Part shown: positions 1-39,978 of the stretch, one piece after another
Position numbering within the stretch: the stretch's first letter is position 1
Layout: every line of letters begins with the position of its first letter
Origin: a virus
Lineage: Duplodnaviria; Heunggongvirae; Uroviricota; Caudoviricetes
Strand: one strand, 5' to 3'
IMG/VR virus record: IMGVR_UViG_2690316296_000007
Location: 1 to 41,346 of that record
DNA length: 41,346 nucleotides
Notes under the pieces: generated by a model
The model's database searches: none
Told to the model about the DNA's origin: nothing
The model's input: the letters and a program-made list of their open reading frames with translations, nothing else
Translations under genes and position numbers: made by a program

Positions 1-301
1 CTATTGCTGGGTAAGATCATTACGACTTGCATAGCCAATGAAGATAAATGTGACGACAAACGGCGCAGCAGTCTTCTTTTCCTTCATACTTTCCCCACCC
101 AGCATGCATACCTTCTACCATAACTGTAGTGAATGTCTGTTATGAGCGAGAAGCGGAAGTTCGTAATTATTATCAGTACAGTGCACCACTAATTATTTTC
201 ACACTGAAAGCATTAAGGTGTGAAGAGGGTTTTTATGCTTGATTTAATTATAAAATTGCAGGAAAGTGACCTTGTATCAGCTGATGATGAGTGAGTAAAA
301 A

Positions 302-1681
302 ATGTGGGAAGATAAGTATATTTGTCATAAATGCGTGAACGATAAATATGTCATGCAGCATATAATAAAAACTGGAAATAATTTTCAGATTTGCTCTTAC
401 TGCAAAAGGAAGCGTAAAAACATCCACCTCAAATATATTCTCAAGATGATGAATGAGGTTTTTGAGTACTACTATGATATATATGAGGATATCTATGATT
501 CCGGGCGCGGTGATAGCGCGCAGGATGTCATCTACGGAGAACTGGGCGTCGAATGGGACGTAGCTGAAGATATTTATGAATTTCTTTGTGATGAATATAA
601 TCCGCATAACGATTATGACTACATCCGGTATAATGACGGGTTTCTTTATCGGCACATAAATCACTATAGCGGAGAGCTTGCGCATACCTGGAGTAAAGCC
701 ACTGACTCCCTTATGAAAGAAACACGATATTTTAACCGTGAAGTTAATGATTTCCTAGATTCACTTTTCAGTGATATCGATAAACTAAAAAACAGAGACA
801 GTAATTCACCGATAAAAACTCTGACTGATGAGGTTCATCTTTTTCGTGCAAGGGTTTTTGAGGACCAAGAGGAAGTAAAGCAAGCCTTGGAGCATCCCGA
901 GAAAAATTTTGGACCTCCCCCAACAACTTTGGCTCGCTCGGGCCGTATGAACGCACAGGGGATTTCAGTATTTTACGGTGCAACCTCAGTGAATTTGGCA
1001 ATTGCTGAAGTAAGGCCGCCCGTCGGCAGTATTGTAGTAACGGCCTGTTTTGTACCGTTACGCGAGCTAAAAGTGCTGGACATTTCTGCCCTTGACTCGA
1101 TTAGTTTCGGCTCAGGTAGTAAATTTGATCCTCAGACTCGCAAAACCAGTGAGCGCGCGATTTTTTTCAGTACGCTTTCCCGTAAGTTGACGCTTCCTAC
1201 TTTTGGAAAAAGGCAGGACAGTGATTACCTCATCACCCAAGTGGTTGCCGATTACCTAGGTGACCGAAATAAATTTAAGCTTGATGGTGTCAGCTTTAAA
1301 TCTACCCAGGTAGATGCCAACGGTGAGGATGCTGAGACAGGATATAATGTCGTTCTGTTTAATAAGTCTTCCGGCGTCAGGCATGCCGCAGATAAATCTC
1401 GCCGATATAATGTTGAGATGTATGAACACATCGAAGATGACCAGTATGCTTTTGTTCCGGAAATTCAGTTGATAGTTGAGGAACAAATAAAACCGAGACA
1501 TATGGGTTCATTTTCATCCTCGCATGACAAAAATGATGCACTACTGTTGAAAACCAACAGTATGACTTATCATAAAATTACTGGTGTAAAATACCAAACA
1601 AGTGAGACGGAGATTCATCAGGGAGATAGCGTTCGAAAACAAGAGCCACCTCAGAAATTCGATGACCTGATTGACTTCTGA
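302..1681 (+). CDS. RES-domain protein with N-terminal zinc-ribbon-like extension (candidate NAD-targeting toxin/defence effector)
   Basis: 459-aa ORF; N-terminus has two CxxC pairs (CHKC ... CSYC); central segment HLFRARVF ... SGRMNAQGISVFYGATSVNLAIAEV fits the RES-domain pattern (conserved Arg, then GRxN...Y...A..E); AT-rich relative to the structural genes. Confidence 0.6.
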   Translation: MWEDKYICHKCVNDKYVMQHIIKTGNNFQICSYCKRKRKNIHLKYILKMMNEVFEYYYDIYEDIYDSGRGDSAQDVIYGELGVEWDVAEDIYEFLCDEYNPHNDYDYIRYNDGFLYRHINHYSGELAHTWSKATDSLMKETRYFNREVNDFLDSLFSDIDKLKNRDSNSPIKTLTDEVHLFRARVFEDQEEVKQALEHPEKNFGPPPTTLARSGRMNAQGISVFYGATSVNLAIAEVRPPVGSIVVTACFVPLRELKVLDISALDSISFGSGSKFDPQTRKTSERAIFFSTLSRKLTLPTFGKRQDSDYLITQVVADYLGDRNKFKLDGVSFKSTQVDANGEDAETGYNVVLFNKSSGVRHAADKSRRYNVEMYEHIEDDQYAFVPEIQLIVEEQIKPRHMGSFSSSHDKNDALLLKTNSMTYHKITGVKYQTSETEIHQGDSVRKQEPPQKFDDLIDF

Positions 1682-1905
1682 TCATCCGTTATATCAGGGT
1701 AAACTATTATTAAAGATGATGTGAGGGCAGTTAAGGAAGGAATTCACCCGGTATCGCGTTACTGGCGTCCCTTGATACCAAGCGGGCAGATTGCTGAACA
1801 GACACGTCTGTTTGAGCGAGGAGTTGGCTTTGTAGAATGCTTCAAGAGATAAAAACGCCTTATTTACGCAACTTGCTGCGAAAGGACCATGGCTTTGCTA
1901 GCTTC

Positions 1906-1945
1906 GGCACAGAGCGGACTGTCAGATTAGGCTTTACTCTGTGCC
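1906..1945. repeat. Hairpin motif copy 1 (GGCACAGAGCGGAC core; 9-bp inverted repeat ggcacagag/ctctgtgcc)
   Basis: Shares a 14-nt core with the copy at 3104..3127; sits in a GC-rich island between AT-rich cassettes. Confidence 0.4.
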
Positions 1946-2335
1946 ATAGATATGTAAGCTCACACCAGAGCTCATACAACTTCTTGCGGCATTTCCGGCC
2001 ATTCAGGATTTGCAGGATCCACACGACTGACCAGAACGCTGTAGCGTTCCCATGCCTCCAGTCGACTGCGCTCCTCATCTGTTGCCATATTCAGCCTGAC
2101 AGCGCGCTCCAGCGGCAAAATCACGGATTCAGCATCTGCTAGAAGTCTGGCTTTCCGATAGCCCATTTAAAGGATAACTTCCAAAGCAGTGGCAACTAAC
2201 ACTATTTATATCATGAGCAAGGCTTTTCCAGTTTTCATGCTCTCAGGGCATAAAAGTATCAACTATTTCTAATCCATGCCGATACTAACAAAAATACCAC
2301 CATAAAATATAATTAAGAAAATGTTAAGGATCTAC

Positions 2336-3010
2336 ATGAAAAGCTATTTAAAAGGTGTTTGGGAATACTTCGCGAGTCACATGTTGTTTATGTATCTCGG
2401 CTCAGTCTCTTTTGCATGGATTGATATCTGGTTTTTTAAAAAAATTGAACCATCAACAATTACTGCAACAGTTTCAACAATAACACTTGGACTAGCGATT
2501 TATGCATTAACAAGGGTAAATGAATGGATTAAAAACAAAAAATCAGAAAAGGCTTTCGAGAGAACTACATTGTTCATCGACAGCATGTTTCGATCAAAGG
2601 ACTTAAATCATCAATGTTATCAATCACTTATTTCTATACAGCCAAGAATAAAAAGTGAGAACCCCATACTCTACAAGCATCTCACTACAAGTGGGAGGGA
2701 GTTACTTTCTGAGTCAAAAGATTTACGATTCGAATTAGTTGCAATTCGGGATAGTTTTGGTTTGTGGAAAATCAAACCTAATCATTCAGACCTTCTAAAT
2801 AATCTCATCACCACCTACACTGCTCTTGTTGCACAATTTAATATCATTTATATTTTAATTGATGAATTAGAGCGTGGTGAAAGGGTAGTTTCTGAGTCAT
2901 CATGGGATAGTTATATCGGAATGATGGCAAGCGCTTATTCAAATTACCATGATCAGTTCGAAATATTCAAAGATTGTAGCTACAATGAACTTTTTAAAAT
3001 CATTAAATAA
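2336..3010 (+). CDS. Hypothetical membrane protein (two N-terminal TM helices)
   Basis: ORF 2321..3010; the ATG at 2336 is preceded by AAGGA; hydrophobic stretches SHMLFMYLGSVSFAWIDIWFF and TATVSTITLGLAIYAL; AT-rich. Confidence 0.45.
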   Translation: MKSYLKGVWEYFASHMLFMYLGSVSFAWIDIWFFKKIEPSTITATVSTITLGLAIYALTRVNEWIKNKKSEKAFERTTLFIDSMFRSKDLNHQCYQSLISIQPRIKSENPILYKHLTTSGRELLSESKDLRFELVAIRDSFGLWKIKPNHSDLLNNLITTYTALVAQFNIIYILIDELERGERVVSESSWDSYIGMMASAYSNYHDQFEIFKDCSYNELFKIIK

Positions 3011-3103
3011 TAATTGTCGTGTATTGCGATCATATCACCAGCGATACCCATGACATTATGGTGACCTGCTCTCCATTGATTAACACATTGTGATGTCAGT
3101 AAC

Positions 3104-3127
3104 GTCCGCTCCTGGCACAGAGCGGAC
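3104..3127. repeat. Hairpin motif copy 2 (gtccgctc-ctggcaca-gagcggac), between convergent cargo genes
   Basis: Perfect 8-bp stem; tccgctcctggcaca is shared with the copy at 4646..4668; may act as a bidirectional terminator. Confidence 0.45.
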
Positions 3128-3203
3128 GATATCACTGAGCTGAAGGTCCGCTGAGAGCGAGGAGCAGAAGTTATATTAAAAATTAATTAGCACGTTGATT
3201 TAA

Positions 3204-4502
3204 TCACCATGAAGGATAATTAGGTTTTTTTCCTCTTAAAAGAGATACTTTGTCAATTATCTCAACAGAAGCAGTTCTATAATCCTCCTGCTGAAGTAGG
3301 TGAACTGCATAATCTCTCAATTCTTGCAAAGTGGAAAAGCCGTTACTTTCGATGAGTATTATAATTATCTTAATATACTTAAAGATTTGTTCAGAGGATT
3401 CGTTCGCGTTGACGTTAAGTTCGTAAAAATCTTTACCATCATGAACAAGCTTGTTTCTTACGTCAGTATATAACTCGTCATAAACTTCTAGGTTTTTCTT
3501 AAATTTGATTAGTGAGTTATTACATGTAAGTGCTGCAATGTAGGTCCTTTGCTTCCATCCTTTCCAATTTGGGTCAATATTAGCAAGACCATCAAGTGCA
3601 AAGACTAGGTTTAGAAATTGTGATTCCGCGCCAATTGAATAAAAAGATTGCCTACATGCCCTAACTACGGAGCTAACTAATTTTGAAAGTTCATTTTCAA
3701 CGACTCCATCGTAGATAGAAGATAAATATTGCAACCCAGGGTAATACAAGCTGTCAACCTGAGGGCCTAGCCAATTATTACTCACAGCAAGGGGTCTTGA
3801 TATTCCACTTATCTTAATTGGTTTAAGATGAGTCCTCTCACGAGGAATGATTTCTACATCATAAAATCCGTCAGAGCGTTGACCTGCAGGATTAGGGGTA
3901 TATTCCATACGTGTAAATGAGCTGTGAGAAAATCTGACTAAATCAAGCGCATATTCAGCTATAGATAAACACATGTTTATAACATGGTTGTTATGATCAA
4001 TGCTTGAATTAAGTTTTAATAAATCAATATATGGTAGGTCACAGTTAAACTGTATATACGAACCATCTTGCTCTGATAATCGCTTATGTGACTCTTCATC
4101 AAATTGTCTTCCGCAATAAAAAATATACTTTCCGATCTCGATGGTTTCCTGAATGAAAATCTTCTCAATCGGCACAATAACTATGCACTCCATATTTTTG
4201 TTTTTACCCTCTAATTCAGCTAATTCTAGGTTAGAGCTTCTTGATTTAGCTAACTCTATTTCTACCCACTCAAAGCATATTGAGAAGTCTTCTAGAATTT
4301 CGATACTGCTTTTTTGATAACTATCCTTGGTATATTTAAATGTAATGCCATCTCCTTCAGGATAGGCACTGGCCCAATATCCCATATCTCTTAACTTTTT
4401 TAGAGATGTTGAGATATCGTCGACTTTATTAATAAAATCCTCTTTTCGCCATAAAACATTGCCAGTGTAGTTTTCGTACGGTGGTATTAAACGAGCTTTC
4501 AT
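3204..4502 (-). CDS. Hypothetical 432-aa cargo protein with Rx4H (HEPN-like) motif; candidate abortive-infection effector
   Basis: Long AT-rich ORF with AAGGAAG 6 nt upstream of the ATG; C-terminal region contains RNKLVHDG (R-x4-H); flanked by the repeated hairpin motif. Confidence 0.5.
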   Translation of the reverse strand: MKARLIPPYENYTGNVLWRKEDFINKVDDISTSLKKLRDMGYWASAYPEGDGITFKYTKDSYQKSSIEILEDFSICFEWVEIELAKSRSSNLELAELEGKNKNMECIVIVPIEKIFIQETIEIGKYIFYCGRQFDEESHKRLSEQDGSYIQFNCDLPYIDLLKLNSSIDHNNHVINMCLSIAEYALDLVRFSHSSFTRMEYTPNPAGQRSDGFYDVEIIPRERTHLKPIKISGISRPLAVSNNWLGPQVDSLYYPGLQYLSSIYDGVVENELSKLVSSVVRACRQSFYSIGAESQFLNLVFALDGLANIDPNWKGWKQRTYIAALTCNNSLIKFKKNLEVYDELYTDVRNKLVHDGKDFYELNVNANESSEQIFKYIKIIIILIESNGFSTLQELRDYAVHLLQQEDYRTASVEIIDKVSLLRGKKPNYPSW

Positions 4503-4645
4503 ATAACTTCCTTATTATCCAAGAGGATGTGACTGAAATTTTTATCAGACTTATCTACAATAATATAAATTGACATGAAAAATCTACTCAACAATTAACC
4601 GTTATGATTTGCTTGCGACGACTAAAACATGCCGATGGGTCGCAT

Positions 4646-4668
4646 CCGCTCCTGGCACATAGCAGTCC
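4646..4668. repeat. Hairpin motif copy 3 (ccgctcctggcacatagcagtcc), degenerate
   Basis: About 19 of 24 positions identical to copy 2; lies between the pin 3' end and the 3204..4502 gene. Confidence 0.4.
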
Positions 4669-4834: not shown

Positions 4835-5389
4835 TCATTTATCTCCGACCGGAAACATCTTATACAGTGTCGATACACCAACATCATAGATGATCGCTAC
4901 CTTCTGGCGAGGAATTCCTGCTGCAATTAATCGTCCGGCCTGCTCCCATTGTTCTGGTGTAAGTTTGGGGCGACGTCCACCAATTCGTCCCTGTGCGCGA
5001 GCAGCTTCCAGTCCAGCTTTTGTTCGTTCAACAATCAGTTCACGCTCCATTTCAGCCAGGGCACCCATCACATGAAAGAAAAAGCGCCCCATTGGGGTAC
5101 TGGTATCAATTGAATCCGTCAGACTACGAAAGTTGATGCCTCGTTCGCGCAACTCCTCCACCAGCACGACAAGATGCCGCATACTGCGCCCCAGTCGGTC
5201 CAGTTTCCAGACCACCAGCGTGTCACCTGCCGATAATGTCCTGAGCAGCTTTTTCAGTCCTGGTCTGTCGGACTTTGTACCGCTTATCTTGTCTTCAAAA
5301 ATCAGCTCACATCCTGCACAGTTCAGCGCATTACGTTGTAGATCGGTATTCTGGTCATTTGTTGATACACGTACATAGCCAATAAGCAT
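4835..5389 (-). CDS. pin: Serine-recombinase DNA invertase (Pin/Gin/Hin/Cin family)
   Basis: N-terminus MLIGYVRVSTNDQNTDLQ with the catalytic Ser in the YVRVS context, resolvase-like core, C-terminal HTH; start moved to the ATG at 5389 (track ORF extends to 5425). Confidence 0.9.
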   Translation of the reverse strand: MLIGYVRVSTNDQNTDLQRNALNCAGCELIFEDKISGTKSDRPGLKKLLRTLSAGDTLVVWKLDRLGRSMRHLVVLVEELRERGINFRSLTDSIDTSTPMGRFFFHVMGALAEMERELIVERTKAGLEAARAQGRIGGRRPKLTPEQWEQAGRLIAAGIPRQKVAIIYDVGVSTLYKMFPVGDK

Positions 5390-5415
5390 GTTAAATCCCC
5401 CTGGTAAAAGCAGGA

Positions 5416-5952
5416 ATGATGCCATTTGCTTGTTATTTCTTCATTTTCATAAACGTTGGTTTGGGAGAAGGTTCGGCATTACCCGTTGGTGTGCCTGTTC
5501 CGTGGCCTTCAGCCACTCCGCCAACAGGCTGGCTGAAATGCAATGGTGCGCCTTTTTCTGCCGAAGAGTATCCGGAACTGGCAAAAGTTTATCCGACAAA
5601 TAAATTGCCAGATTTACGCGGTGAGTTTATTCGTGGCTGGGATGATGAACGTGGTGTGGATAGTGGGCGAACTCTGCTTTCAGCGCAAGGAGATGCTATT
5701 CGAAACATTACTGGCGGTTTTGGTCAGTTGCGCGTAAACAGCGAAATAAATGCAATTGTTGATGTTCAAAGTGTGAGTGGTGCTTTTTACGGAGGTACCT
5801 CAGTCCGGAATAACATCAACGTATCTATGACATACGCTAATGACCGAAAAATCCGACAAGATGTTCACTTCTCGGCGGCAAATGTTGTTCCAACAGCAAA
5901 TGAAAATCGTCCACGTAACATCGCCTTTAATTATATTGTGAGGGCCGCATGA
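5416..5952 (+). CDS. Alternative tail-fibre C-terminal cassette (Sv'-like), silent in the present orientation
   Basis: Encodes NVGLGEGSALPVGVPVPWPSATPPTGWLKCNGAPFSAEEYPELAKVYP, typical of the variable fibre tip in invertible segments; the crossover site lies just inside its 5' end; no independent expression expected. Confidence 0.7.
   Translation: MMPFACYFFIFINVGLGEGSALPVGVPVPWPSATPPTGWLKCNGAPFSAEEYPELAKVYPTNKLPDLRGEFIRGWDDERGVDSGRTLLSAQGDAIRNITGGFGQLRVNSEINAIVDVQSVSGAFYGGTSVRNNINVSMTYANDRKIRQDVHFSAANVVPTANENRPRNIAFNYIVRAA
5449..5474. repeat. Invertase crossover site 1 (gix/hix-like)
   Basis: ataaacgttggtttgggagaaggttc; its reverse complement matches the site at 7301..7325 in a ~20-nt core (ttctcccaaacca[a/c]cgttt). 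Confidence 0.7.
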
Positions 5953-6554
5953 TGAATAAAGCTGTATTAAATAGTGAACTCATTGCCATAAAAACGGGAG
6001 ACATTATCATTTATAATTATGATGGTGAAACGCGTGAATATATTTCTACATCAACTGAATATCTCGCTGTCGGCGTCGGTATCCCGGCATGTTCTTGTTT
6101 GGATGCACCAGGTACACATAAAGCTGGTTATGCAATCTGTCGCTCTGTAGATTTAAATTCATGGGAATATGTGCCAGATCATCGCGGTGAAATCGTCTAT
6201 AGCACCGAAACAGGAGAATCGAAAGAAATCACAGCTCCGGGTGATTATCCTGAAAATACAACCACTATCGCCCCGTTAACGCCATACGATGAATGGAATG
6301 GTGAGAAATGGGTGACAGATACCGAGGCACAGCACGGCGCAGCAGTAGATGCAGCAGAAGCACAGCGCCAGTCGCTGATTGATACTGCAATGGCCTCCAT
6401 CAGTCTGATTCAACTGAAATTACAGGCCGGACGGAAGCTGACGCAGGCAGAAACAACCCGCCTTAACGCTGTGCTGGATTACATTGACGCGGTGACGGCA
6501 ACAGATACCAGCACAGCGCCGGATGTCATCTGGCCTGAACTGCCGGAGGCGTAG
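5949..6554 (+). CDS. Tail fibre assembly protein (partner of the silent cassette)
   Basis: 201-aa ORF directly after the alternative fibre tip; conserved Tfa-type C-terminus (DYIDAVTATDTSTAPDVIWPELPEA). Confidence 0.8.
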   Translation: MMNKAVLNSELIAIKTGDIIIYNYDGETREYISTSTEYLAVGVGIPACSCLDAPGTHKAGYAICRSVDLNSWEYVPDHRGEIVYSTETGESKEITAPGDYPENTTTIAPLTPYDEWNGEKWVTDTEAQHGAAVDAAEAQRQSLIDTAMASISLIQLKLQAGRKLTQAETTRLNAVLDYIDAVTATDTSTAPDVIWPELPEA

Positions 6555-6963
6555 GCCATTCAATATCTGGCGCACCGGAAGTATCGATCAGCTCCAGTGC
6601 GTCCAGATAATCCAGCCACAAATTATATTGCGCCAGTTCATCACCTTTCAGACGACCAATAGCGGCTTTACCGGGCCATTGCTTACTGTTCATGTATTCG
6701 TTGGCCTGATTAAGCAATAATTGCCTTTCTGATTCTGCCTGCTGAATAAGTTCTTCATGTGATGGTGGAGGTATTAGTGCCCATGTGGGTAATCCATTTT
6801 TTCCTGCAACACGAATTTTGTCATCTGGAGGCGTATTGATTGCAAATTCATTATAAACATCATCACTGACAGCCAGAGCATCATCTGGCCATGAATTTGC
6901 ATTAATGTAATCATCCTTAAGTGCAGGATTCACAAAAATGTTTAAAGATGGACTATAAAACAT
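6526..6963 (-). CDS. Tail fibre assembly protein (partner of the expressed fibre tip)
   Basis: 145-aa ORF directly after the fibre gene; Tfa-type C-terminus (DYLDALELIDTSGAPDIEWPTPP). Confidence 0.8.
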   Translation of the reverse strand: MFYSPSLNIFVNPALKDDYINANSWPDDALAVSDDVYNEFAINTPPDDKIRVAGKNGLPTWALIPPPSHEELIQQAESERQLLLNQANEYMNSKQWPGKAAIGRLKGDELAQYNLWLDYLDALELIDTSGAPDIEWPTPPAVQAR

Positions 6964-6964
6964 A

Positions 6965-7603
6965 TTACACCCCTATAGCGATATAACGACCTAATACAGC
7001 GTTTGCAGCAGTCGCTATGCTTGAAAAACCGCGGAACTGATTTGATGTAATTGCAGAAGCCGACAGGATTCCTGCGCCTGAAGGTGTATGCCCCACATGA
7101 CTAACTATCATTCCATAACATGCTGACGGAAAGGCAAAAGGAAAATCGTTAAGATATCCGGCATCTTCACCACCAGACCCACCAAATCTCGCCTGCCCCC
7201 ACTGAATAATCAGTGTTCTCCGGGAACCTGAAATAATTAACGGGATCGTTACATACCCATTCAGGCCAATGACACCAGATGCAGTGCCAGCCAGAGATAA
7301 TTCTCCCAAACCAAGGTTTTCGAGAGCCGTTTTCACCGTGCCATCCGATTTGATATCGCCAAACGGATTTTTGCGGCTTAACAGCAGCGCACGAAGCGCG
7401 GTAAGCAACTGGTCGTGCCGCCCCTTCTCCAGGCTGGCACCGGATGCCTCCACCACGCTGCAGAGCTCTTCCTGCAACATGTCAAAGTAGTCATCATCCA
7501 GATCGGTGGCAGGCGTGCCGGTCTGGGGGTTACCACGGGTAAAACCGTTCTTACCCGCGCCGAACTTATCCTTCTGCGCGGTTTTCGTGTCTATACGATG
7601 CAT
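6965..7603 (-). CDS. Side tail fibre protein (constant N-terminal part fused to the currently expressed variable C-terminus)
   Basis: 212 aa; GGAGT Shine-Dalgarno; the crossover site encodes LENLGLGE at about residue 95, the fusion point; size and layout like e14 StfP. Confidence 0.8.
   Translation of the reverse strand: MHRIDTKTAQKDKFGAGKNGFTRGNPQTGTPATDLDDDYFDMLQEELCSVVEASGASLEKGRHDQLLTALRALLLSRKNPFGDIKSDGTVKTALENLGLGELSLAGTASGVIGLNGYVTIPLIISGSRRTLIIQWGQARFGGSGGEDAGYLNDFPFAFPSACYGMIVSHVGHTPSGAGILSASAITSNQFRGFSSIATAANAVLGRYIAIGV
7301..7325. repeat. Invertase crossover site 2, inside the tail fibre gene
   Basis: attctcccaaaccaaggttttcgag; inverted relative to site 1. Confidence 0.7.
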
Positions 7604-15120: not shown

Positions 15121-15531
15121 GTGTGCGTTTCTCCTGCTCTATCCTGTTTGCCTGACTGACCAGCAAGGGAATTTCACTGATCGGCATATTCAGCAATTCG
15201 AAGGGATTAATGCGCCAGTAGCTGGCGCAGTCAAAGAAGCGATCAGTGAGGTATTCAGCCGTCAGGCCTGGAGGAAAAAACCAGCCACAAGCCACGCCGC
15301 TGCATTCAGGTCTGCCGGAGACATCTGGTCGACAGAGCTTTGCGGCACTTTCGCCAGCCGCACAATGTATTTCGACACCACATGCGCCAGAAGTCTGACG
15401 GACTCATCCTGATTCATCTGGTAGGGATACCCCAGCTCGCGGACATCCTTCCCGGTGGGTTCATCAAACTCCAGTACGGAGAGTGTCTCACCATGAGCGA
15501 TAATCGGTTTCTTTAACTCAAGCTCTTTCAT
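15113..15531 (-). CDS. Tail assembly chaperone (G-like product 15262..15531) and -1 frameshift extension (GT-like, to 15113)
   Basis: Two overlapping ORFs in frames 0 and -1 between tube and tape measure; slippery heptamer T_TTT_TTC in the overlap. Confidence 0.6.
15274..15280 (-). promoter_or_regulatory. Programmed -1 frameshift slippery site (U UUU UUC)
   Basis: Heptamer in X_XXY_YYZ register at the end of the chaperone ORF; shifted frame continues ...GFFPPGLTAEYL... Confidence 0.5.
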
Positions 15532-17383: not shown

Positions 17384-17537
17384 CGGTGTTCACCTTTTTA
17401 TTCACGCGCCGGATATCACCCGCGGCTTCACGGCGCAGCCAGTAGTTGTTCTCGTCAACATTTCGCCCTTCGGCGGGCAAAAGGTCGCCGCGGGCAGGGT
17501 CAGGCACTGACCGCCCTTTAACAGGTTTCACAAACAT
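17367..17537 (-). CDS. Small conserved tail-module protein (Mu-like DUF2635-type), 56 aa
   Basis: Hand-translated ORF MFVKPVKGRSVPDPARGDLLPAEGRNVDENNYWLRREAAGDI..., not in the supplied track; overlaps the sheath start; no clear Shine-Dalgarno. Confidence 0.4.
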   Translation of the reverse strand: MFVKPVKGRSVPDPARGDLLPAEGRNVDENNYWLRREAAGDIRRVNKKVNTDDDKL

Positions 17538-22849: not shown

Positions 22850-24583
22850 TTAAAGCGAGCGGATCCCATAGGACTCAATGTGGTCAGACAGCGTGTCTTC
22901 TTTCTCGTACAGCATGGCTCTGCCAACCGCCATAATCAGCGCAACTGCACCGTCAATTTTGTTTTCCGCCTGCTCTTTGACGGGCTTCACCACATCATCG
23001 TTACCCGGAATGGTTTTGCCGACCACGTTGCCGATACACCAGGTCATGATGGGATTGCCATCATGATGAAAGCGCCCCGATTCAATTGCCGCTTCCAGCT
23101 CTTTCATCGGGTCGGACATGTTGGTGTAGTTCTGAATGATAGTGATGGGGTTCAGGTCTTCATCAGCAAGGTCATGTGACAACCCGGTCGCCCCGAAGGG
23201 GTCGATGGGTGACTCACTGACCGGGCTGATTTTGTTCGCTGCTTTGGCCTCTTCGAGGATGTAGCGATAATCCACCTCTGCACCATCGGTAACGGTCAGG
23301 ACGCCCATTTCCACCCATTTCTGAAAGCGTTCGGCTGTCCGGCGATCTTCATTTTTCTCGACGCTGTACACCGTGTCATACGGTACCCAGAAACGCGGGG
23401 CTACACTGTAGTAATGCGTTTTACCGTCAATCTCGCGGGTATAAAGTCGCGCCATGCTGTTCATATCCAGCTTACGCGCCAGGTCAAAGGCCAGAATGCA
23501 CGGCTGCCCCTCGAACTGCTCAAGGGTAAGTGATTTATCCTCGCAGCTCTGCCAGCTCACCAGGTTGAAATACGCCGAACGCGCCGACACCCAGATATTG
23601 AGGTGTTTTGTTTTAAAGACGTTTGCCAGACGGGCGTTATTTTTCGCACGCTGTTGCTGACTTAACAAAAACTCACGGTAAACCGACACCCCGATATTCG
23701 GGTTAGCTTTTTCCAGCACCTGTGGGTCGGTCCAGTCGTCACCTTCGTCAACGGTATAGATGATCCCGAACAGTTCATCGTTGGGTACCGACCCGTTGAG
23801 CATCTCGATAACTTCCCGCCGCTTGTCGTAGCACGGCCCCTCAATGTTGTACCCGGCAGTAGTAATGGCCCACATCAGTGGCTGACGTCGCGCCCCCATC
23901 CCGGTAAGCATCGTGGTGTAAAGCGCATCGGTGGCGTGCTCGTGATATTCATCCACCACCGCACAGTGGGGTGATGATCCATCACCGGGGTTACCGATCA
24001 GCGGTTCAAACCGCGCGCCATCCTCCGGACGGTTCATGTTTGAGGCGTTAACCTCAATCCCGAACGCTTCCGTCAGCATGGGTGTGCGTTTACACATCAG
24101 TCGCGCCGGGCGAAAGACTTCCCACGCCTGTTTCTCTGTCGTGGCACCGGAATACACTTCCGCGCCAAACTCGTTATCACAGGCAAAACAATACAGGGCG
24201 ACACCGGCAGAGATTGCCGATTTGCCGTTCTTACGGGGAATTTCGGTATACACCTCCCGGAAGCGGCGCAGCCGGGTACCTTTATTGACCCAGCCAAACG
24301 CACAGCAGATCACAAAGAGCTGCCACGGCTCCAGCGTGATGGGCATCCTCTTGAATGCCCACTCCCCCTTGGTGTGCGGCAACAGTTGAATAAATTTGGC
24401 GGCCCGTTCAGCCAGGTCCTTGTCGAAGCGGTAACGAAACGACTTACTTTTTTCCGCCATCAGGTCATCAAGATGGCGCTGGCAGGCCTGAATCACAAAC
24501 TGGCAGGCCACAATCTTTCCGCGCACGACATCACGGGCATACTGATTGGCAGCATTTACGTTGGGGTAAGATTTCCGGCTCAT
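22850..24583 (-). CDS. Terminase large subunit
   Basis: 577-aa ORF with ATPase and nuclease character, overlapping the TerS stop. Confidence 0.9.
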
Positions 24584-27262: not shown

Positions 27263-27722
27263 TTACCCCCCCACCAGCCTCTTTAAACCGGGAAATCAGG
27301 TCACCGATTTTATGTTCATACTGACCGTAACCTGCACCAGGTAACGACGCCCAGATATTGCTGCAACGATCGATAGCCTGACGGATATCACCGCGATCAA
27401 TCATCGGTAAAGCGCCACGCTCTTTAATCTGCTGCAATGCCACTGCGTCCTGGCTTTTGGGGGAGAAGTCTTTCAAACCAAGCTGTTTACGGTAAGCATC
27501 CCACCAGCGTGAAAGAAGCTGATAACGTCCGGCGGCTGTTGATTTGAGTTTGGGGTTTAACGTGACAAGTTTGCGAGGGTGATCAGAGTAATCAGTAAAC
27601 AGTTCGCCGCCAACAATAACATCATAACCGTGATTACGTGTCGGTTGTCGCCCGTTATCCGTTCCTTCTGACCAAGCCACCATATCAAGGAAAGCTTTAC
27701 GCTGGGGATTTAGCACCTGCAT
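27246..27722 (-). CDS. R: Endolysin (lambda R-like lytic transglycosylase)
   Basis: NPQRKAFLDMVAWSEGTDNGRQPTRNHGYDVIVGGELFTDYSDHPRKLVTLNPKLKSTAAGRYQLLSRWWDAYRKQLGL closely matches lambda R as recalled. Confidence 0.9.
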   Translation of the reverse strand: MQVLNPQRKAFLDMVAWSEGTDNGRQPTRNHGYDVIVGGELFTDYSDHPRKLVTLNPKLKSTAAGRYQLLSRWWDAYRKQLGLKDFSPKSQDAVALQQIKERGALPMIDRGDIRQAIDRCSNIWASLPGAGYGQYEHKIGDLISRFKEAGGGVNEVEL

Positions 27723-38498: not shown

Positions 38499-38848
38499 TG
38501 GAGCCATACAGCCTCACACTCGATGAGGCCTGTCATTTTCTCAAGATATCCAGACCGACTGCCATTAACTGGATACGCACAGGGCGTCTTCAGGCAACAC
38601 GCAAAGATCCCACTAAGAATAAATCTCCTTACCTCACAACACGACAAGCCTGCATTGCGGCTCTTCAGTCTCCGCTGCATACTGTCCAGGTGAGCGCGGG
38701 TGATGGCATAACAGAGGAAAGAAAATGTCACTCTTCCGCAGAGGTGAAATATGGTACGCCAGTTTCACATTGCCGAACGGTAAAAGATTTAAACAGTCTC
38801 TTGGAACAAAGGACAAAAGGCAGGCGACAGAACTCCATGACAAGCTAA
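38498..38848 (+). CDS. Excisionase-like DNA-binding protein (AlpA/Xis type)
   Basis: [29 protein letters not shown]; ATG at 38498 preceded by AAGAGG; the 3' portion overlaps the integrase start, so the true stop is uncertain. Confidence 0.55.
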
Positions 38849-39888
38849 AGGCTGAAGCATGGCGGGTCAGCAAACTTGGTGAAATACCTGATATAACGTT
38901 CGAGGAAGCGTGTGTCAGGTGGCTTGAAGAGAAAGCACATAAAAAATCACTGGACGATGACAAAAGCCGGATCGGATTCTGGCTTCAACATTTCGCAGGA
39001 ATGCAACTAAGAGACATTACTGAATCAAAAATTTATTCAGCAATGCAGAAAATGACGAACCGGCGTCATGAGGAAAACTGGAAACTCAGGGCAGAAGCAT
39101 GCAGAAAAAAAGGGAAACCTGTTCCAGAATACACGCCAAAACCAGCGTCCGTTGCAACGAAGGCTACGCATCTTTCATTTATAAAGGCCCTACTAAGAGC
39201 CGCAGAGCGTGAATGGAAAATGCTGGATAAGGCACCAATTATTAAAGTGCCTCAACCAAAGAATAAACGGATCCGCTGGCTGGAGCCCCATGAAGCACAA
39301 AGGCTGATTGATGAATGTCCGGAGCCATTAAAGTCTGTTGTTGAATTTGCACTGGCAACAGGCTTAAGACGCTCGAACATCATCAACCTTGAATGGCAAC
39401 AAATAGATATGCAGCGCCGGGTGGCATGGATAAACCCGGAAGAGAGTAAATCAAACCGCGCAATTGGCGTTGCGCTGAATGATACTGCATGTCGCGTATT
39501 GAAAAAACAAATCGGGAATCATCACCGTTGGGTATTTGTGTACAAGGAAAGCTGTACCAAACCAGACGGAACGAAAGCGCCAACAGTAAGGAAGATGCGG
39601 TATGACGCAAACACAGCCTGGAAAGCGGCGCTGAGACGGGCTGGTATTGATGATTTCAGATTTCACGACTTGAGACACACCTGGGCAAGTTGGCTGGTTC
39701 AAGCCGGAGTCCCGTTGTCAGTGTTACAGGAAATGGGAGGCTGGGAGTCTATCGAAATGGTTCGTCGATATGCTCACCTTGCACCTAATCACCTTACCGA
39801 ACACGCACGGCAAATAGACTCGATCCTGAACCCATCGGTCCCAAATTTGTCCCAGTCAAAAAATAAGGAAGGTACTAATGATGTGTAA
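38725..39888 (+). CDS. Tyrosine integrase
   Basis: 387 aa; N-terminal arm-binding region ([22 protein letters not shown]); C-terminal [39 protein letters not shown] with catalytic Tyr. Confidence 0.9.
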
Positions 39889-39902: not shown

Positions 39903-39978
39903 TGGTGCCGATAATAGGAGTCGAACCTACGACCTTCGCATTACGAATGCGCTGCTCTACCAACTGAGCTATATCGGC
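39903..39978 (-). tRNA. thrW: tRNA-Thr (anticodon CGU)
   Basis: 76-nt cloverleaf GCCGATATAGCTCAGTTGGTAGAGCAGCGCATTCGTAATGCGAAGGTCGTAGGTTCGACTCCTATTATCGGCACCA; anticodon loop TT-CGT-AA; 3' CCA end faces the integrase. Confidence 0.9.

Follow-up and report, generated by a model that had tools for sequence, protein, structure and literature searches.

The closest described counterpart of the sites reported here is found in the Z region of phage P2. GenBank records AJ512676-AJ512685, from a study of that region in P2-like coliphages (Nilsson, Karlsson and Haggard-Ljungquist 2004, Mol Biol Evol 21:1), annotate sequences as left and right inverted repeats, and the annotated repeats of P2-EC46 (3-115 and 3166-3256) include the A and B cores described below; the recombination sites of the present motif thus form a family that is already known. 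Site-specific recombination at the P2 repeats has been proposed in earlier work, according to PMC8987985. In the literature searched, which Nilsson et al. 2004 lay outside, neither the motif nor accessions of the recombinase discussed below were found in print.

The DNA analysed here (the window, 41,346 nt in full) carries sites of the same sequence family as the P2 inserts. Copies 1 and 2 of the motif together rebuild the 'left inverted repeat' beside gene G, the B-type sites match the 'right inverted repeat', and in both cases low-GC, unrelated genes lie between the repeats. The location differs: the P2 inserts lie between G and FI, whereas the window sites are found next to pin in a lambda/e14-like E. 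coli prophage at thrW (tRNA-Thr(CGT), 39903-39978), and P2 is represented in the window by a 240-bp fragment only (1920-2158). A first-pass annotation, made from the sequence alone, had noted three copies of the motif and did not link them to the inverted repeat annotated in the P2 Z-region records.

Other systems are also built from modules between short sites. In the dif modules of Acinetobacter, accessory genes lie between pdif sites of the tyrosine-recombinase kind that alternate in inverted orientation, C and D modules alternate, and the backbones count as modules (PMC13141974, PMC6449649). The window arrays likewise consist of modules bounded by like arms (inner arms for cassettes, outer arms for linkers and backbones); however, dif is an XerC/XerD site of 11-6-11 layout, whereas the window sites have an 8-8-8 layout, a different sequence, and two centre variants, A and B. 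The core sequence shows no resemblance to dif. Further, dif modules use the host Xer proteins, whereas the candidate enzyme here is a dedicated recombinase of 200 aa, encoded within a single module, and the hosts here are Enterobacterales phages, plasmids and islands.

Integrons and CALINs resemble the present arrays in their promoter-poor cassettes, imperfectly palindromic composite sites, tyrosine recombinase at the platform, many arrays without recombinase, and defence genes as cargo. An integron cassette has a single attC in one orientation, whereas here two inverted site types belong to each cassette and the cassette genes can point either way; when all junctions were read directly, no RYYYAAC/GTTRRRY boxes appeared, nor do the sites show any sign of a folded single-stranded substrate. 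The 200-aa recombinase reaches 17-18 bits with the NCBIfam integron-integrase models (cut-offs 265 and 435) and is not an IntI. Engineered cassette exchange at heterospecific lox or FRT sites works with two sites of common arms and incompatible centres, which are inverted on either side of the cassette and yield replacement by double crossover at fixed polarity; the likeness lies in the coupling of centre positions 11 and 14 and in the count of zero inverted cassettes (both below), the incompatibility of A and B being a prediction here, and the exchange, if real, would be a natural one.

REP, BIME and REPIN elements have in common with the present sites that they are short, GC-rich, intergenic palindromes of alternating orientation with short conserved linkers, but they are high-copy in core extragenic DNA, whereas the window family is low-copy with breakpoints within the core; no REP-associated tyrosine transposase (RAYT) was among the recurrent ORF clusters neighbouring window-type sites. 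Lambdoid morons (Hendrix/Juhala) are likewise low-GC extra genes between backbone genes of temperate phages, but what defines them is a promoter and a terminator of their own rather than conserved recombination sites, and neither a terminator nor a consistent promoter was found at the window borders.

Site architecture and map of the array

The three copies are A-type sites of 24 bp (GTCCGCTYCTGGCACAKAGCRGAC), and they have B-type partners that are inverted relative to A (KTCCGCTYYTCGCTCAWAGCRGAC). Two inverted arms of 7-8 bp (GTCCGCTY / RAGCRGAC) surround an 8-bp centre; A sites have CTGGCACA as their centre, B sites CTCGCTCA, and the A core reads GTCCGCTY-CTGGCACA-RAGCRGAC (8-8-8). Within the centre, positions 11 and 14 show strict coupling, with GA at 169 sites, CT at 107 and no more than 5 hybrids. 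Each cassette is bounded by one B and one A site, and neighbouring cassettes are joined via an A site, a linker of about 18 nt, and a B site; the sites in the window make up a four-slot array with such junctions. For the complete A-linker-B junction the folding energy is -36 kcal/mol on both strands, with z values of -4.4 and -5.7. Linker families recur at junctions where both flanking cassettes differ, the linker travelling with neither neighbour. The features of the array and its borders are as follows.

19-134, outer flank of the terminal B site, lambda/phage 21-type backbone (matches lambda beside 27322-27345, and phage 21)
135-158, minus strand, terminal B-type site, left border of the cargo array, 39.0 bits (TTCCGCTTCTCGCTCATAACAGAC on the minus strand; Hamming scan)
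302-1681, plus strand, cargo of cassette 1, 459-aa RES-domain protein (Pfam RES, 53.7 bits)
1764-1828, plus strand, possible decayed A-linker-B junction (A'' 1764-1787, linker 1788-1804, reverse-complement B' 1805-1828)
1896-1919, plus strand, copy 1, A-type site, inner 10 nt degenerate, GGCACAGAGCGGAC conserved at 1906-1919
1920-2158, minus strand, P2-type backbone fragment with A-site outer flank TGTCAGATTAGGCTTTACTCTGTGCC and the 3' end of a tail-fibre-assembly gene
2159-3103, plus strand, cassette 3, 229-aa hypothetical protein (ORF 2321-3010), own B end lost
3104-3127, plus strand, copy 2, complete A-type site GTCCGCTCCTGGCACAGAGCGGAC, 38.4 bits
3128-3145, 18-nt inter-cassette linker gatatcactgagctgaag (linker family nnnnTnACTGAGCTGAAG)
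3146-3169, minus strand, internal B-type site, left border of cassette 4, 31.1 bits (TTCTGCTCCTCGCTCTCAGCGGAC on the minus strand)
3204-4502, minus strand, cargo of cassette 4, 432-aa hypothetical protein, GC 34-38% (ORF list)
4644-4667, plus strand, copy 3, terminal A-type site ATCCGCTCCTGGCACATAGCAGTC that closes the array on the right, 35.6 bits
4835-5425, minus strand, pin serine invertase, backbone adjoining the array (Pfam Resolvase and HTH_7)

The repeated motif is real and goes beyond chance. GGCACAGAGCGGAC matches exactly at 1906-1919 and 3114-3127 (about 0.07 such exact 14-mer pairs are expected inside 6 kb, as an estimate), and TCCGCTCCTGGCACAGAGC at 3105-3123 recurs at 4645-4663 with one mismatch (estimated expectation for such a 19-mer pair, about 0.004); a loose repeat test (up to three mismatches; 6 observed, 3.2 expected) is uninformative on its own. 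With a position weight matrix made from related loci, and 30 shuffles of the window as null, full sites scored 31-39 bits and the best of the shuffles 16 bits. Zero sites were found by the matrix in the remaining 36 kb of the window, and over the full lengths of the window, P2 and lambda, sites came up at cargo borders only.

The first-pass annotation had placed the copies at the boundaries of cargo genes, where indeed all three lie, and its span for copy 2 is retained (3104-3127), whereas the core of copy 3 runs from 4644 to 4667 rather than from 4646 to 4668. Copy 1 does share the core, of which the outer 14 of 24 bp are kept, but the hairpin that had been counted as part of it (GGCACAGAG...CTCTGTGCC) is a separate inverted repeat, one that belongs downstream of the tail-fibre-assembly gene in P2-type backbone DNA. 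An inverted repeat, present or former, had been assigned to every copy; this applies to copy 2, a perfect palindrome with an 8-bp stem, but copy 3 folds no better than shuffled sequence, with z between +1.1 and +1.6 for copy 3 and the terminal B site. Only the A-type sites had been noticed; their inverted B-type partners (135-158 and 3146-3169) and the decayed junction at 1764-1828 had been overlooked. The decayed junction is a weak call from sequence (about 14 of 24 A-core positions match); it aligns over its full length with five intact junctions and keeps GAGCGAGGAG and AAGCGG.

Homology to other genomes changes at the sites. A megablast match to a P2-like prophage begins at 135, the homology of the RES cassette with lambdoid prophages ends at 1907, i.e. 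at the core centre of copy 1, and 3127 is where the homology with the P2-like prophage and that with an island both stop; the flank at 4643-4700 matches lambda 24294-24348 and phage 21, and the backbone runs on to pin. The fragment 1920-2158 matches DNA located 3' of intact G-like genes of P2-like phages, and the remnant ORF in it (1972-2166; 'tail fiber assembly protein, incomplete' in RefSeq) covers positions 71-131 only of the 131 of Pfam Caudo_TAP. Its junction with cassette 3 (2158/2159) is not site-specific.

Several other assignments of the motif were rejected. Pin is ruled out as the enzyme for these sites, as P2 and lambda have sites without any invertase; the site layout is also unlike that of the hix or gix sites of invertases. 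A tRNA/att remnant is excluded, as the motif bears no relation to the 3' end of the tRNA, and so is a known RNA family, as Rfam reports nothing but tRNAs for the window and for 11 related loci. By eye, a sigma-54 promoter (TGGCAC-N5-TTGC) was dismissed for its missing -12 element, and a Shine-Dalgarno sequence (AGGAG, reverse strand) for the many copies without AGGAG.

Breakpoints and distribution of cassettes

Homology breakpoints lie inside the invariant core centre; the inner arm accompanies the cassette, and the outer arm remains part of the backbone. Positions 135-3127 of the window form a 3-kb two-cassette module that is 99.5% identical, from B core to A core, to the Z-region module of a P2-like prophage, and the B cores of the two modules differ in their outer halves only. 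Sites with the same outer flank and a different cassette vary at core positions 1, 4, 8 and 9 only, and where one cassette is found in different backbones, its sites vary at positions 17, 21, 23 and beyond (in only 6-7 site pairs). Two related loci (L112 and L115) have two junctions in common but enclose different cassettes; their B sites agree in the outer half and differ in the inner half, and the second junction is a 63-bp homology island. The crossover interval (positions 10-16) is invariant, hence the sharpness of the breakpoints cannot tell cleavage by an enzyme from recombination at short homology.

The site grammar, the breakpoint position and recent transfer between backbones are thus observed directly. 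The first-pass annotation had offered two interpretations, recombination at a conserved sequence that exchanges cassettes, or shared bidirectional terminators. The former is strongly supported by identical cassettes in unrelated backbones with homology stopping at the cores, by one backbone slot holding different cassettes, and by crossovers that map to the core centre; related prophages, where it had proposed to look, contain the motif with varying cargo between the copies. The latter is not supported, with no T-tract and no terminator call at any copy and two sites unfolded.

The same grammar was found in 120 viral contigs and in many Enterobacterales genera. In a sample of 1.17 Mb of viral contigs, 94 site pairs were of the cassette type, 34 of the junction type, and 23 of other types; the spacer of junction-type pairs was 15-27 nt in 26 of 34, and exactly 18 nt in 15. 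None of the 94 cassettes, which fall into 65 distinct clusters, had the opposite polarity relative to B->A. The same sites are located around fun/Z in P2, around ea31-ea59 in lambda, and in phage 21. The 86-nt P2-type element matches 104 phage records, including the AJ5126xx entries with their 'left inverted repeat' feature at that place, and in sister prophages (L007-L012) unrelated foreign genes, enclosed by inverted repeats, occupy one constant place in the backbone. Of 5426 E. coli genomes, 2026 (about 37%) contain the family, at 1-7 detectable places per genome and in accessory DNA only.

Candidate recombinase and rival explanations

A conserved gene for a 200-aa tyrosine recombinase takes the linker position of other arrays, in E. 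coli, Proteus, Pantoea, Idiomarina and on plasmids; it surfaced only among loci that were retrieved by means of the junction, and it is 603 bp long (for example L256, 3421-4023). Loci of E. coli, Phytobacter, Buttiauxella and Pantoea have it between A and reverse-complement B, 660 nt replacing 18, with conserved flanks, and in Proteus, Cycloclasticus, Idiomarina and two plasmids its stop codon is followed by a hairpin that is fused to an A site. The gene carries the outer half-sites of A and B in at least 14 loci of several orders; recombinase and sites are physically linked. The protein matches Pfam Phage_integrase (55.8 bits, cut-off 27.1) with little beyond the catalytic domain, and its H-x-x-R, H and Y residues align with H244, R247, H270 and Y279 of XerD.

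From these features, the 200-aa protein is likely the enzyme for the A/B sites, acting in trans. The window contains no gene for it, 848 of 5426 E. coli genomes carry one (84% do not), E. coli Nissle and ATCC 25922 being examples with both an array and the recombinase, and at >60% identity none was detected in 50,697 phage records, though the sites are common in phages; action in trans must therefore be assumed. Clustering of ORFs around 240 loci yielded backbone genes only, and no recombinase common to all backbones. The recombinase could also be just one more passenger module.

Site-specific cassette exchange at paired 24-bp A/B recombination sites is the best explanation of these sequence patterns, with a probability of about 0.6, and the sites probably let a small recombinase shift cargo genes among unrelated phages, plasmids and islands. 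Strand exchange would occur in the invariant core centre, such that the inner arm would be that of the cassette and the outer arm that of the backbone or linker. As the centres differ at two coupled positions, A would pair with A and B with B, and a cassette could thereby be swapped between two loci through double exchange, with polarity kept. Alternatively, excision or insertion of a cassette as a circle may proceed through a pair of A sites, or a pair of B sites, in direct repeat; given that the linker moves with neither cassette, the circle-insertion test leaves these models unseparated. The window carries sites only and would depend on a recombinase copy elsewhere in the cell. Catalysis by the 200-aa protein, the position of cleavage, and the incompatibility of A with B are what we infer.

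The cores might instead serve as short homology for general recombination (RecA, or annealing of the phage Red/RecT type) between co-resident phages, with no dedicated enzyme; they would then persist since loci that keep them go on gaining useful cargo. Breakpoints in the sole common sequence are equally expected from this process, most arrays and every sequenced phage are without the recombinase, and the junction islands of 46-66 bp fall within the range that annealing recombinases use in recombineering; the window junction at the tail-fibre-assembly remnant is clearly illegitimate or homologous. Recombination by homology alone leaves unexplained the dyad-symmetric 8-8-8 layout with two discrete centre types and almost no hybrids, the conservation of cores and linkers across genera despite different cassettes on either side, and the recurrent combination of the recombinase gene with outer half-sites. 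The very low general recombination of P2 also counts against it, and we regard this explanation as doubtful, if a serious one. Terminal inverted repeats of non-autonomous transposons (MITE-like or composite, and mobilised by a transposase) would account for the imperfect inverted repeats of 24-35 bp that flank each cassette. This explanation is largely refuted and has hardly any probability left: target-site duplications are lacking, the outside flanks are inverted rather than direct (e.g. TGTCAGATT on both sides in P2), the backbone position is always the same, and each repeat keeps its outer half as part of the backbone. No transposase recurred among the ORF clusters near the sites, and no empty P2-type site was found in IMG/VR in two scans, a weak search for exact patterns only.

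Two further explanations consider the sites as palindromes with a function, or a life, of their own. The A site, 18-nt linker and inverted B resemble a REPIN or BIME doublet with a strong fold, and near-identical direct palindromes, several per 8 kb, are present between housekeeping genes in Xanthobacteraceae, Nitrosomonadaceae and other metagenome-assembled genomes; selfish or structural palindromes, insulators or stabilisers of mRNA 3' ends of this kind would coincide with cassette borders as these are intergenic. We consider them improbable, in view of the low copy number in the accessory DNA of E. coli, the lack of sites in the other 36 kb of the window and elsewhere in P2 and lambda, and arm changes that are uncompensated; insertion of whole doublets would also not be expected to give terminal half-sites beside backbone or breakpoints within the core. 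For bidirectional intrinsic terminators, insulating cargo genes from phage transcription, speak the position at gene ends, the perfect stem of copy 2, and the stability of the junction on both strands. They are very improbable, however, with the T-tract lacking and with several sites upstream rather than downstream of the adjacent gene; the terminator scan made 3 calls in 5.6 kb (4.4 expected), none at the copies, and the terminator of the P2 V operon, according to the depositors, is about 300 bp away from the site, within the fun(Z) cassette. Arm positions 4 and 21 pair as C-G in 33 sites, C-A in 23 and T-A in 2, i.e. without compensatory change, which also rules out a selected RNA or DNA hairpin.

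More tentatively, and with somewhat less than an even chance, the A/B sites and the recombinase with little more than a catalytic domain may constitute an uncharacterised natural platform for cassette exchange, similar to integrons or dif modules but with two heterospecific sites, the phages borrowing the enzyme from plasmids and islands of the host. Such a platform would link the classical 'non-essential' slots of P2 (Z region), lambda (ea31-ea59 in the b region), phage 21 and e14-like prophages with plasmids and genomic islands across Gammaproteobacteria and probably Alphaproteobacteria.

Cargo and use of the sites

If true, cassette exchange at A/B sites would provide a concrete mechanism for a pattern noted long ago, in which temperate phages that are unrelated hold accessory and anti-phage genes, each able to replace another, at fixed hot spots; the textbook genomes of lambda and P2 both hold such slots. 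The two 24-bp matrices are a simple means to delimit cargo cassettes, and with 65 clusters among 94 cassettes, many of them of hypothetical genes, the sites could steer the search for defence or conversion genes. The analysis also names a small candidate enzyme with predicted site behaviour; together with its two natural heterospecific sites of 24 bp, a recombinase of 200 aa could serve as a compact tool for cassette exchange.

The 432-aa and the 229-aa proteins of the window gave no match in Pfam and PADLOC searches. The cassette of the latter is present at ≥98% identity in 9 of 5426 E. coli genomes, in three different backbones, and its B site is still present in a related locus (L003). The 459-aa protein is named 'RES family NAD+ phosphorylase' in RefSeq and has a weak additional match to HEPN_RES_NTD1; its cassette is also found in a lambdoid prophage, adjoining a Lit gene.

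Repeat sites bordering the cargo genes

The window corresponds to a prophage that has inserted at tRNA-Thr(CGT) (39903-39978) in E. coli; in six RefSeq genomes holding the same prophage, the pao operon lies on the other side of the element. Its baseplate genes, tail-fibre genes and pin invertase gene (4835-5425) are e14-like. The 4.5-kb stretch between the left prophage end and pin has a GC content of 34-45%, compared with 56-60% in the baseplate genes. None of the three cargo proteins (RES, 229-aa and 432-aa) matched a PADLOC model.

The first-pass annotation had described three copies of a hairpin motif in this stretch, and the motif is real: GGCACAGAGCGGAC occurs exactly at 1906-1919 and 3114-3127, and the 19-mer of 3105-3123 is found again at 4645-4663 with one mismatch. 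The copies are beyond chance, because only about 0.07 events (exact GGCACAGAGCGGAC pair) and about 0.004 events (one-mismatch 19-mer pair) are estimated for 6 kb. A weight matrix from related loci scored the window sites at 31-39 bits, whereas shuffles reached 16 bits at most; it detected no sites in the other 36 kb of the window. Scanning of both strands revealed another type of site, inverted relative to the first, which had been missed before. Read from the cassette outward, the A site is GTCCGCTYCT-GGCACA-KAGCRGAC and the B site KTCCGCTYYT-CGCTCA-WAGCRGAC; a cassette is the cargo DNA between a B and an A site, and a junction (A site, linker, B site) separates neighbouring cassettes. The cassette borders are marked by the motif, as had been noted.

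Features of the window
135-158, B site, left of the RES gene
302-1681, RES-domain gene, cargo stretch
1764-1828, decayed A-linker-B junction, after the RES gene
between the decayed junction and A', remnant slot of 68 nt
1896-1919, A' site, outer half only
between A' and the 229-aa gene, P2 backbone piece of 240 bp with the tail-fibre-assembly remnant
1972-2166, minus strand, 3' remnant of a tail-fibre-assembly gene
2321-3010, 229-aa ORF, cargo stretch
3104-3127, A site, after the 229-aa gene
between 3104-3127 and 3146-3169, linker of 18 nt
3146-3169, B site, before the 432-aa gene
3204-4502, minus strand, 432-aa ORF
4644-4667, A site, between the 432-aa gene and the backbone with pin
5416-5952 and 5949-6554, plus strand, tail-fibre/assembly ORF set
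6526-6963 and 6965-7603, minus strand, tail-fibre/assembly ORF set
38725-39888, integrase gene, with proA beyond

The further suggestion of shared bidirectional terminators did not hold, as no copy has a T-tract and a terminator scan called none; also, the annotated V-operon terminator of P2 sits inside the cassette, away from the site. Hairpin formation was borne out for the junction, which folds strongly (-36 kcal/mol; z -4.4 and -5.7), but not for the third copy (4644-4667); the terminal B site likewise does not fold. A selected hairpin was rejected, since changes in the arms are uncompensated (position 4/21: C-G 33 times, C-A 23 times, T-A twice). The arms are therefore conserved as sequence, as would be expected of protein-binding half-sites.

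Beside pin (5416-7603), tail-fibre C-terminal and assembly ORFs form two convergent sets, arranged as in a host-range segment that Pin can invert. Positions 1-134 are backbone in common with phage 21 and lambda (just right of 27345), and include a 29-codon ORF (1-90, minus strand) with no Pfam match.

Occurrence in P2, other phages and bacteria

A P2-like prophage (L002) carries the RES-remnant-229-aa module of window 135-3127 at 99.5% identity, with the tail sheath gene on one side and the tail-fibre-assembly gene on the other, which places it in the P2 Z-region. Downstream of its intact assembly gene, the second motif copy is fused to the first (GTCCGCTCCTGGCACAGAGCGGACTGTCAGATTAGGCTTTACTCTGTGCC), and this 86-nt fused element matches 104 phage records. 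For the 'P2-ECxx proviral Z-region' records AJ512676-AJ512685 (Nilsson et al. 2004), the match falls under the feature 'left inverted repeat', and the annotated 'right inverted repeat' of P2-EC46 includes a B core. The site family was already known, because these GenBank records annotate the repeats; the window is a multi-slot addition to it in a different phage backbone.

Window 1920-2166 is a 240-bp P2-type backbone fragment within a non-P2 prophage, with the tail-fibre-assembly 3' end and its downstream inverted repeat (GGCACAGAG...CTCTGTGCC). This fragment shows that the RES plus 229-aa module derives from a P2-like phage, and that the junction 2158/2159 was not made at a site.

P2 itself has an A site (15335-15358) and a B site (17432-17455) flanking fun(Z), with no further sites in the rest of its genome. 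In lambda (J02459), ea31-ea59 lie between a B site (27322-27345) and an A site that has lost one base (near 24322-24345); phage 21 and ev017 have another cassette between lambda-type flanks in the same slot. A lambdoid prophage carries RES, Lit and one more gene between B and A. The comparison of related prophages proposed with the first-pass annotation showed that sister prophages occupying the thrW or pao site have different cargo between the same flanks, including genes for a restriction endonuclease, a GTP pyrophosphokinase and a protein kinase, and other genes. In the interval from the terminal A site to pin, sister prophages (L007-L011) carry a gene for a LEM-3-like GIY-YIG nuclease and a short fragment of a 'capsid protein' pseudogene, both of which are absent from the window; a LEM-3 GIY-YIG gene is also found near an array in Proteus (L266).

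Among 5426 E. coli genomes, the 229-aa cassette is found in nine at 98% identity or more (three backbones), and a junction query matches 928 by BLAST at a coverage of at least 80%, in 1-7 places per genome. Genera that show the same site grammar in a scan of species representatives include Erwinia, Pantoea, Serratia, Hafnia, Kosakonia, Rahnella, Phytobacter, Klebsiella, Citrobacter and Enterobacter.

Ten loci (L136, L143, L158, L164, L178, L185, L193, L228, L239, L249) from metagenome-assembled genomes (Xanthobacteraceae/Pseudolabrys, Nitrosomonadaceae, a gammaproteobacterium, a Sericytochromatia bacterium) have several near-identical palindromes per 8 kb (GTCCGCTnnTGGCACAwAGCGGAC, direct orientation) between housekeeping genes, e.g. 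for a Na:Ala symporter, NadA and AspRS; in Pseudolabrys they form units of about 115 nt of three palindromes with common arms and differing centres. These palindromes look REP-like.

Array grammar and crossover position

The grammar was derived from 120 loci (1.17 Mb in total) that an IMG/VR scan yielded. Consecutive sites form 94 cassette-type pairs (319-4085 nt, median 1522), 34 junction-type pairs, 20 direct A-A pairs and three others; the junction spacer is 15-27 nt in 26 of the 34 (18 nt in 15, 16 nt in six). The 94 cassettes fall into 65 clusters, and within each cluster all members have the same polarity with respect to B-to-A. The bases at centre positions 11 and 14 are coupled: 169 sites have GA, 107 have CT and at most five are hybrids. 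Linker families, e.g. AAGCTnACTGAGCTGAAG, recur across genera, with different cassettes on both sides of the junctions in 18 of 19 pairs. Seven loci (L034, L045, L060, L085, L100, L107, L126) have a recurrent direct A-A pair spaced by about 3673 bp, in which no B was detectable; the pair may represent two cassettes whose junction has decayed, as at window 1764-1828.

Where different cassettes share an outer flank, variation is confined to core positions 1, 4, 8 and 9, and positions 10-24 are at least 91% identical; where a cassette is shared between different backbones (few sites), positions 1-16 are constant, and 17, 21, 23 and the flank change. Between the window B site (135-158) and its copy in the P2 context, positions 17 and 19 are the only differences. 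Two loci, L112 and L115, have two junctions in common and a different cassette between them; their B sites are identical in the outer half and not in the inner half, and homology at the second junction forms a 63-bp island. Because variation splits in this way, the crossover is placed in the invariant centre. The inner arm goes with the cassette and the outer arm with the backbone or linker.

Candidate recombinase and proposed exchange

We infer a system of a tyrosine recombinase and two heterospecific sites. Three junction-query loci and L007 each have a 603-bp gene that encodes a tyrosine recombinase of 200 aa. Nine copies (E. coli, Phytobacter, Buttiauxella, Pantoea and a viral contig; 84-98% amino-acid identity) take the place of the 18-nt linker, in the order cassette, GTCCGCTYCTGGCACA, hairpin GGGCTGCTGTTGCAGCCC, stop codon and gene, start codon, predicted RBS-sequestering hairpin, GGTTGTCCCTTATGAGCG, variable inner half. 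The hairpin and A site 3' of the stop codon are also found in Proteus, Cycloclasticus, Idiomarina, and E. coli and Klebsiella plasmids, the plasmid loci having metabolic genes in neighbouring cassettes. The recombinase scores above the cut-off for Pfam Phage_integrase and below that of every named NCBIfam family, and in an alignment with XerD its H-x-x-R, H and Y fall on the catalytic residues. It has thousands of homologs. The gene occurs in 848 of the 5426 E. coli genomes; 347 plasmid records also contain it, those of alphaproteobacterial plasmids at less than 60% identity. It was not found in the window or, at more than 60% identity, in sequenced phages.

A x A and B x B exchange by the candidate recombinase would swap a cassette between loci with fixed polarity. 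Within an array, direct A-A or direct B-B recombination would excise or insert a circle of one cassette and one junction, which would explain both the A-linker-B arrangement and the absence of empty sites. Exact-pattern scans of IMG/VR found no empty P2-type site. Arrays with no recombinase gene, such as the window, would need the enzyme in trans. Catalysis by the candidate, the cleavage positions and the incompatibility of A and B are putative parts of this mechanism. The main rival explanation is general recombination by short homology at conserved linker sequences. The array grammar, the slots of lambda and phage 21, and the linked small recombinase are not covered by the searchable papers and may or may not be new.

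Upstream of the recombinase start codon (L007:3283-3330, L256:4024-4062 and equivalents), an inverted repeat with a 13-bp stem is conserved (ACTCAAATCTCC...GGAGATTTGAGT). It would sequester the GGAG ribosome-binding site, which suggests translational control of the recombinase.
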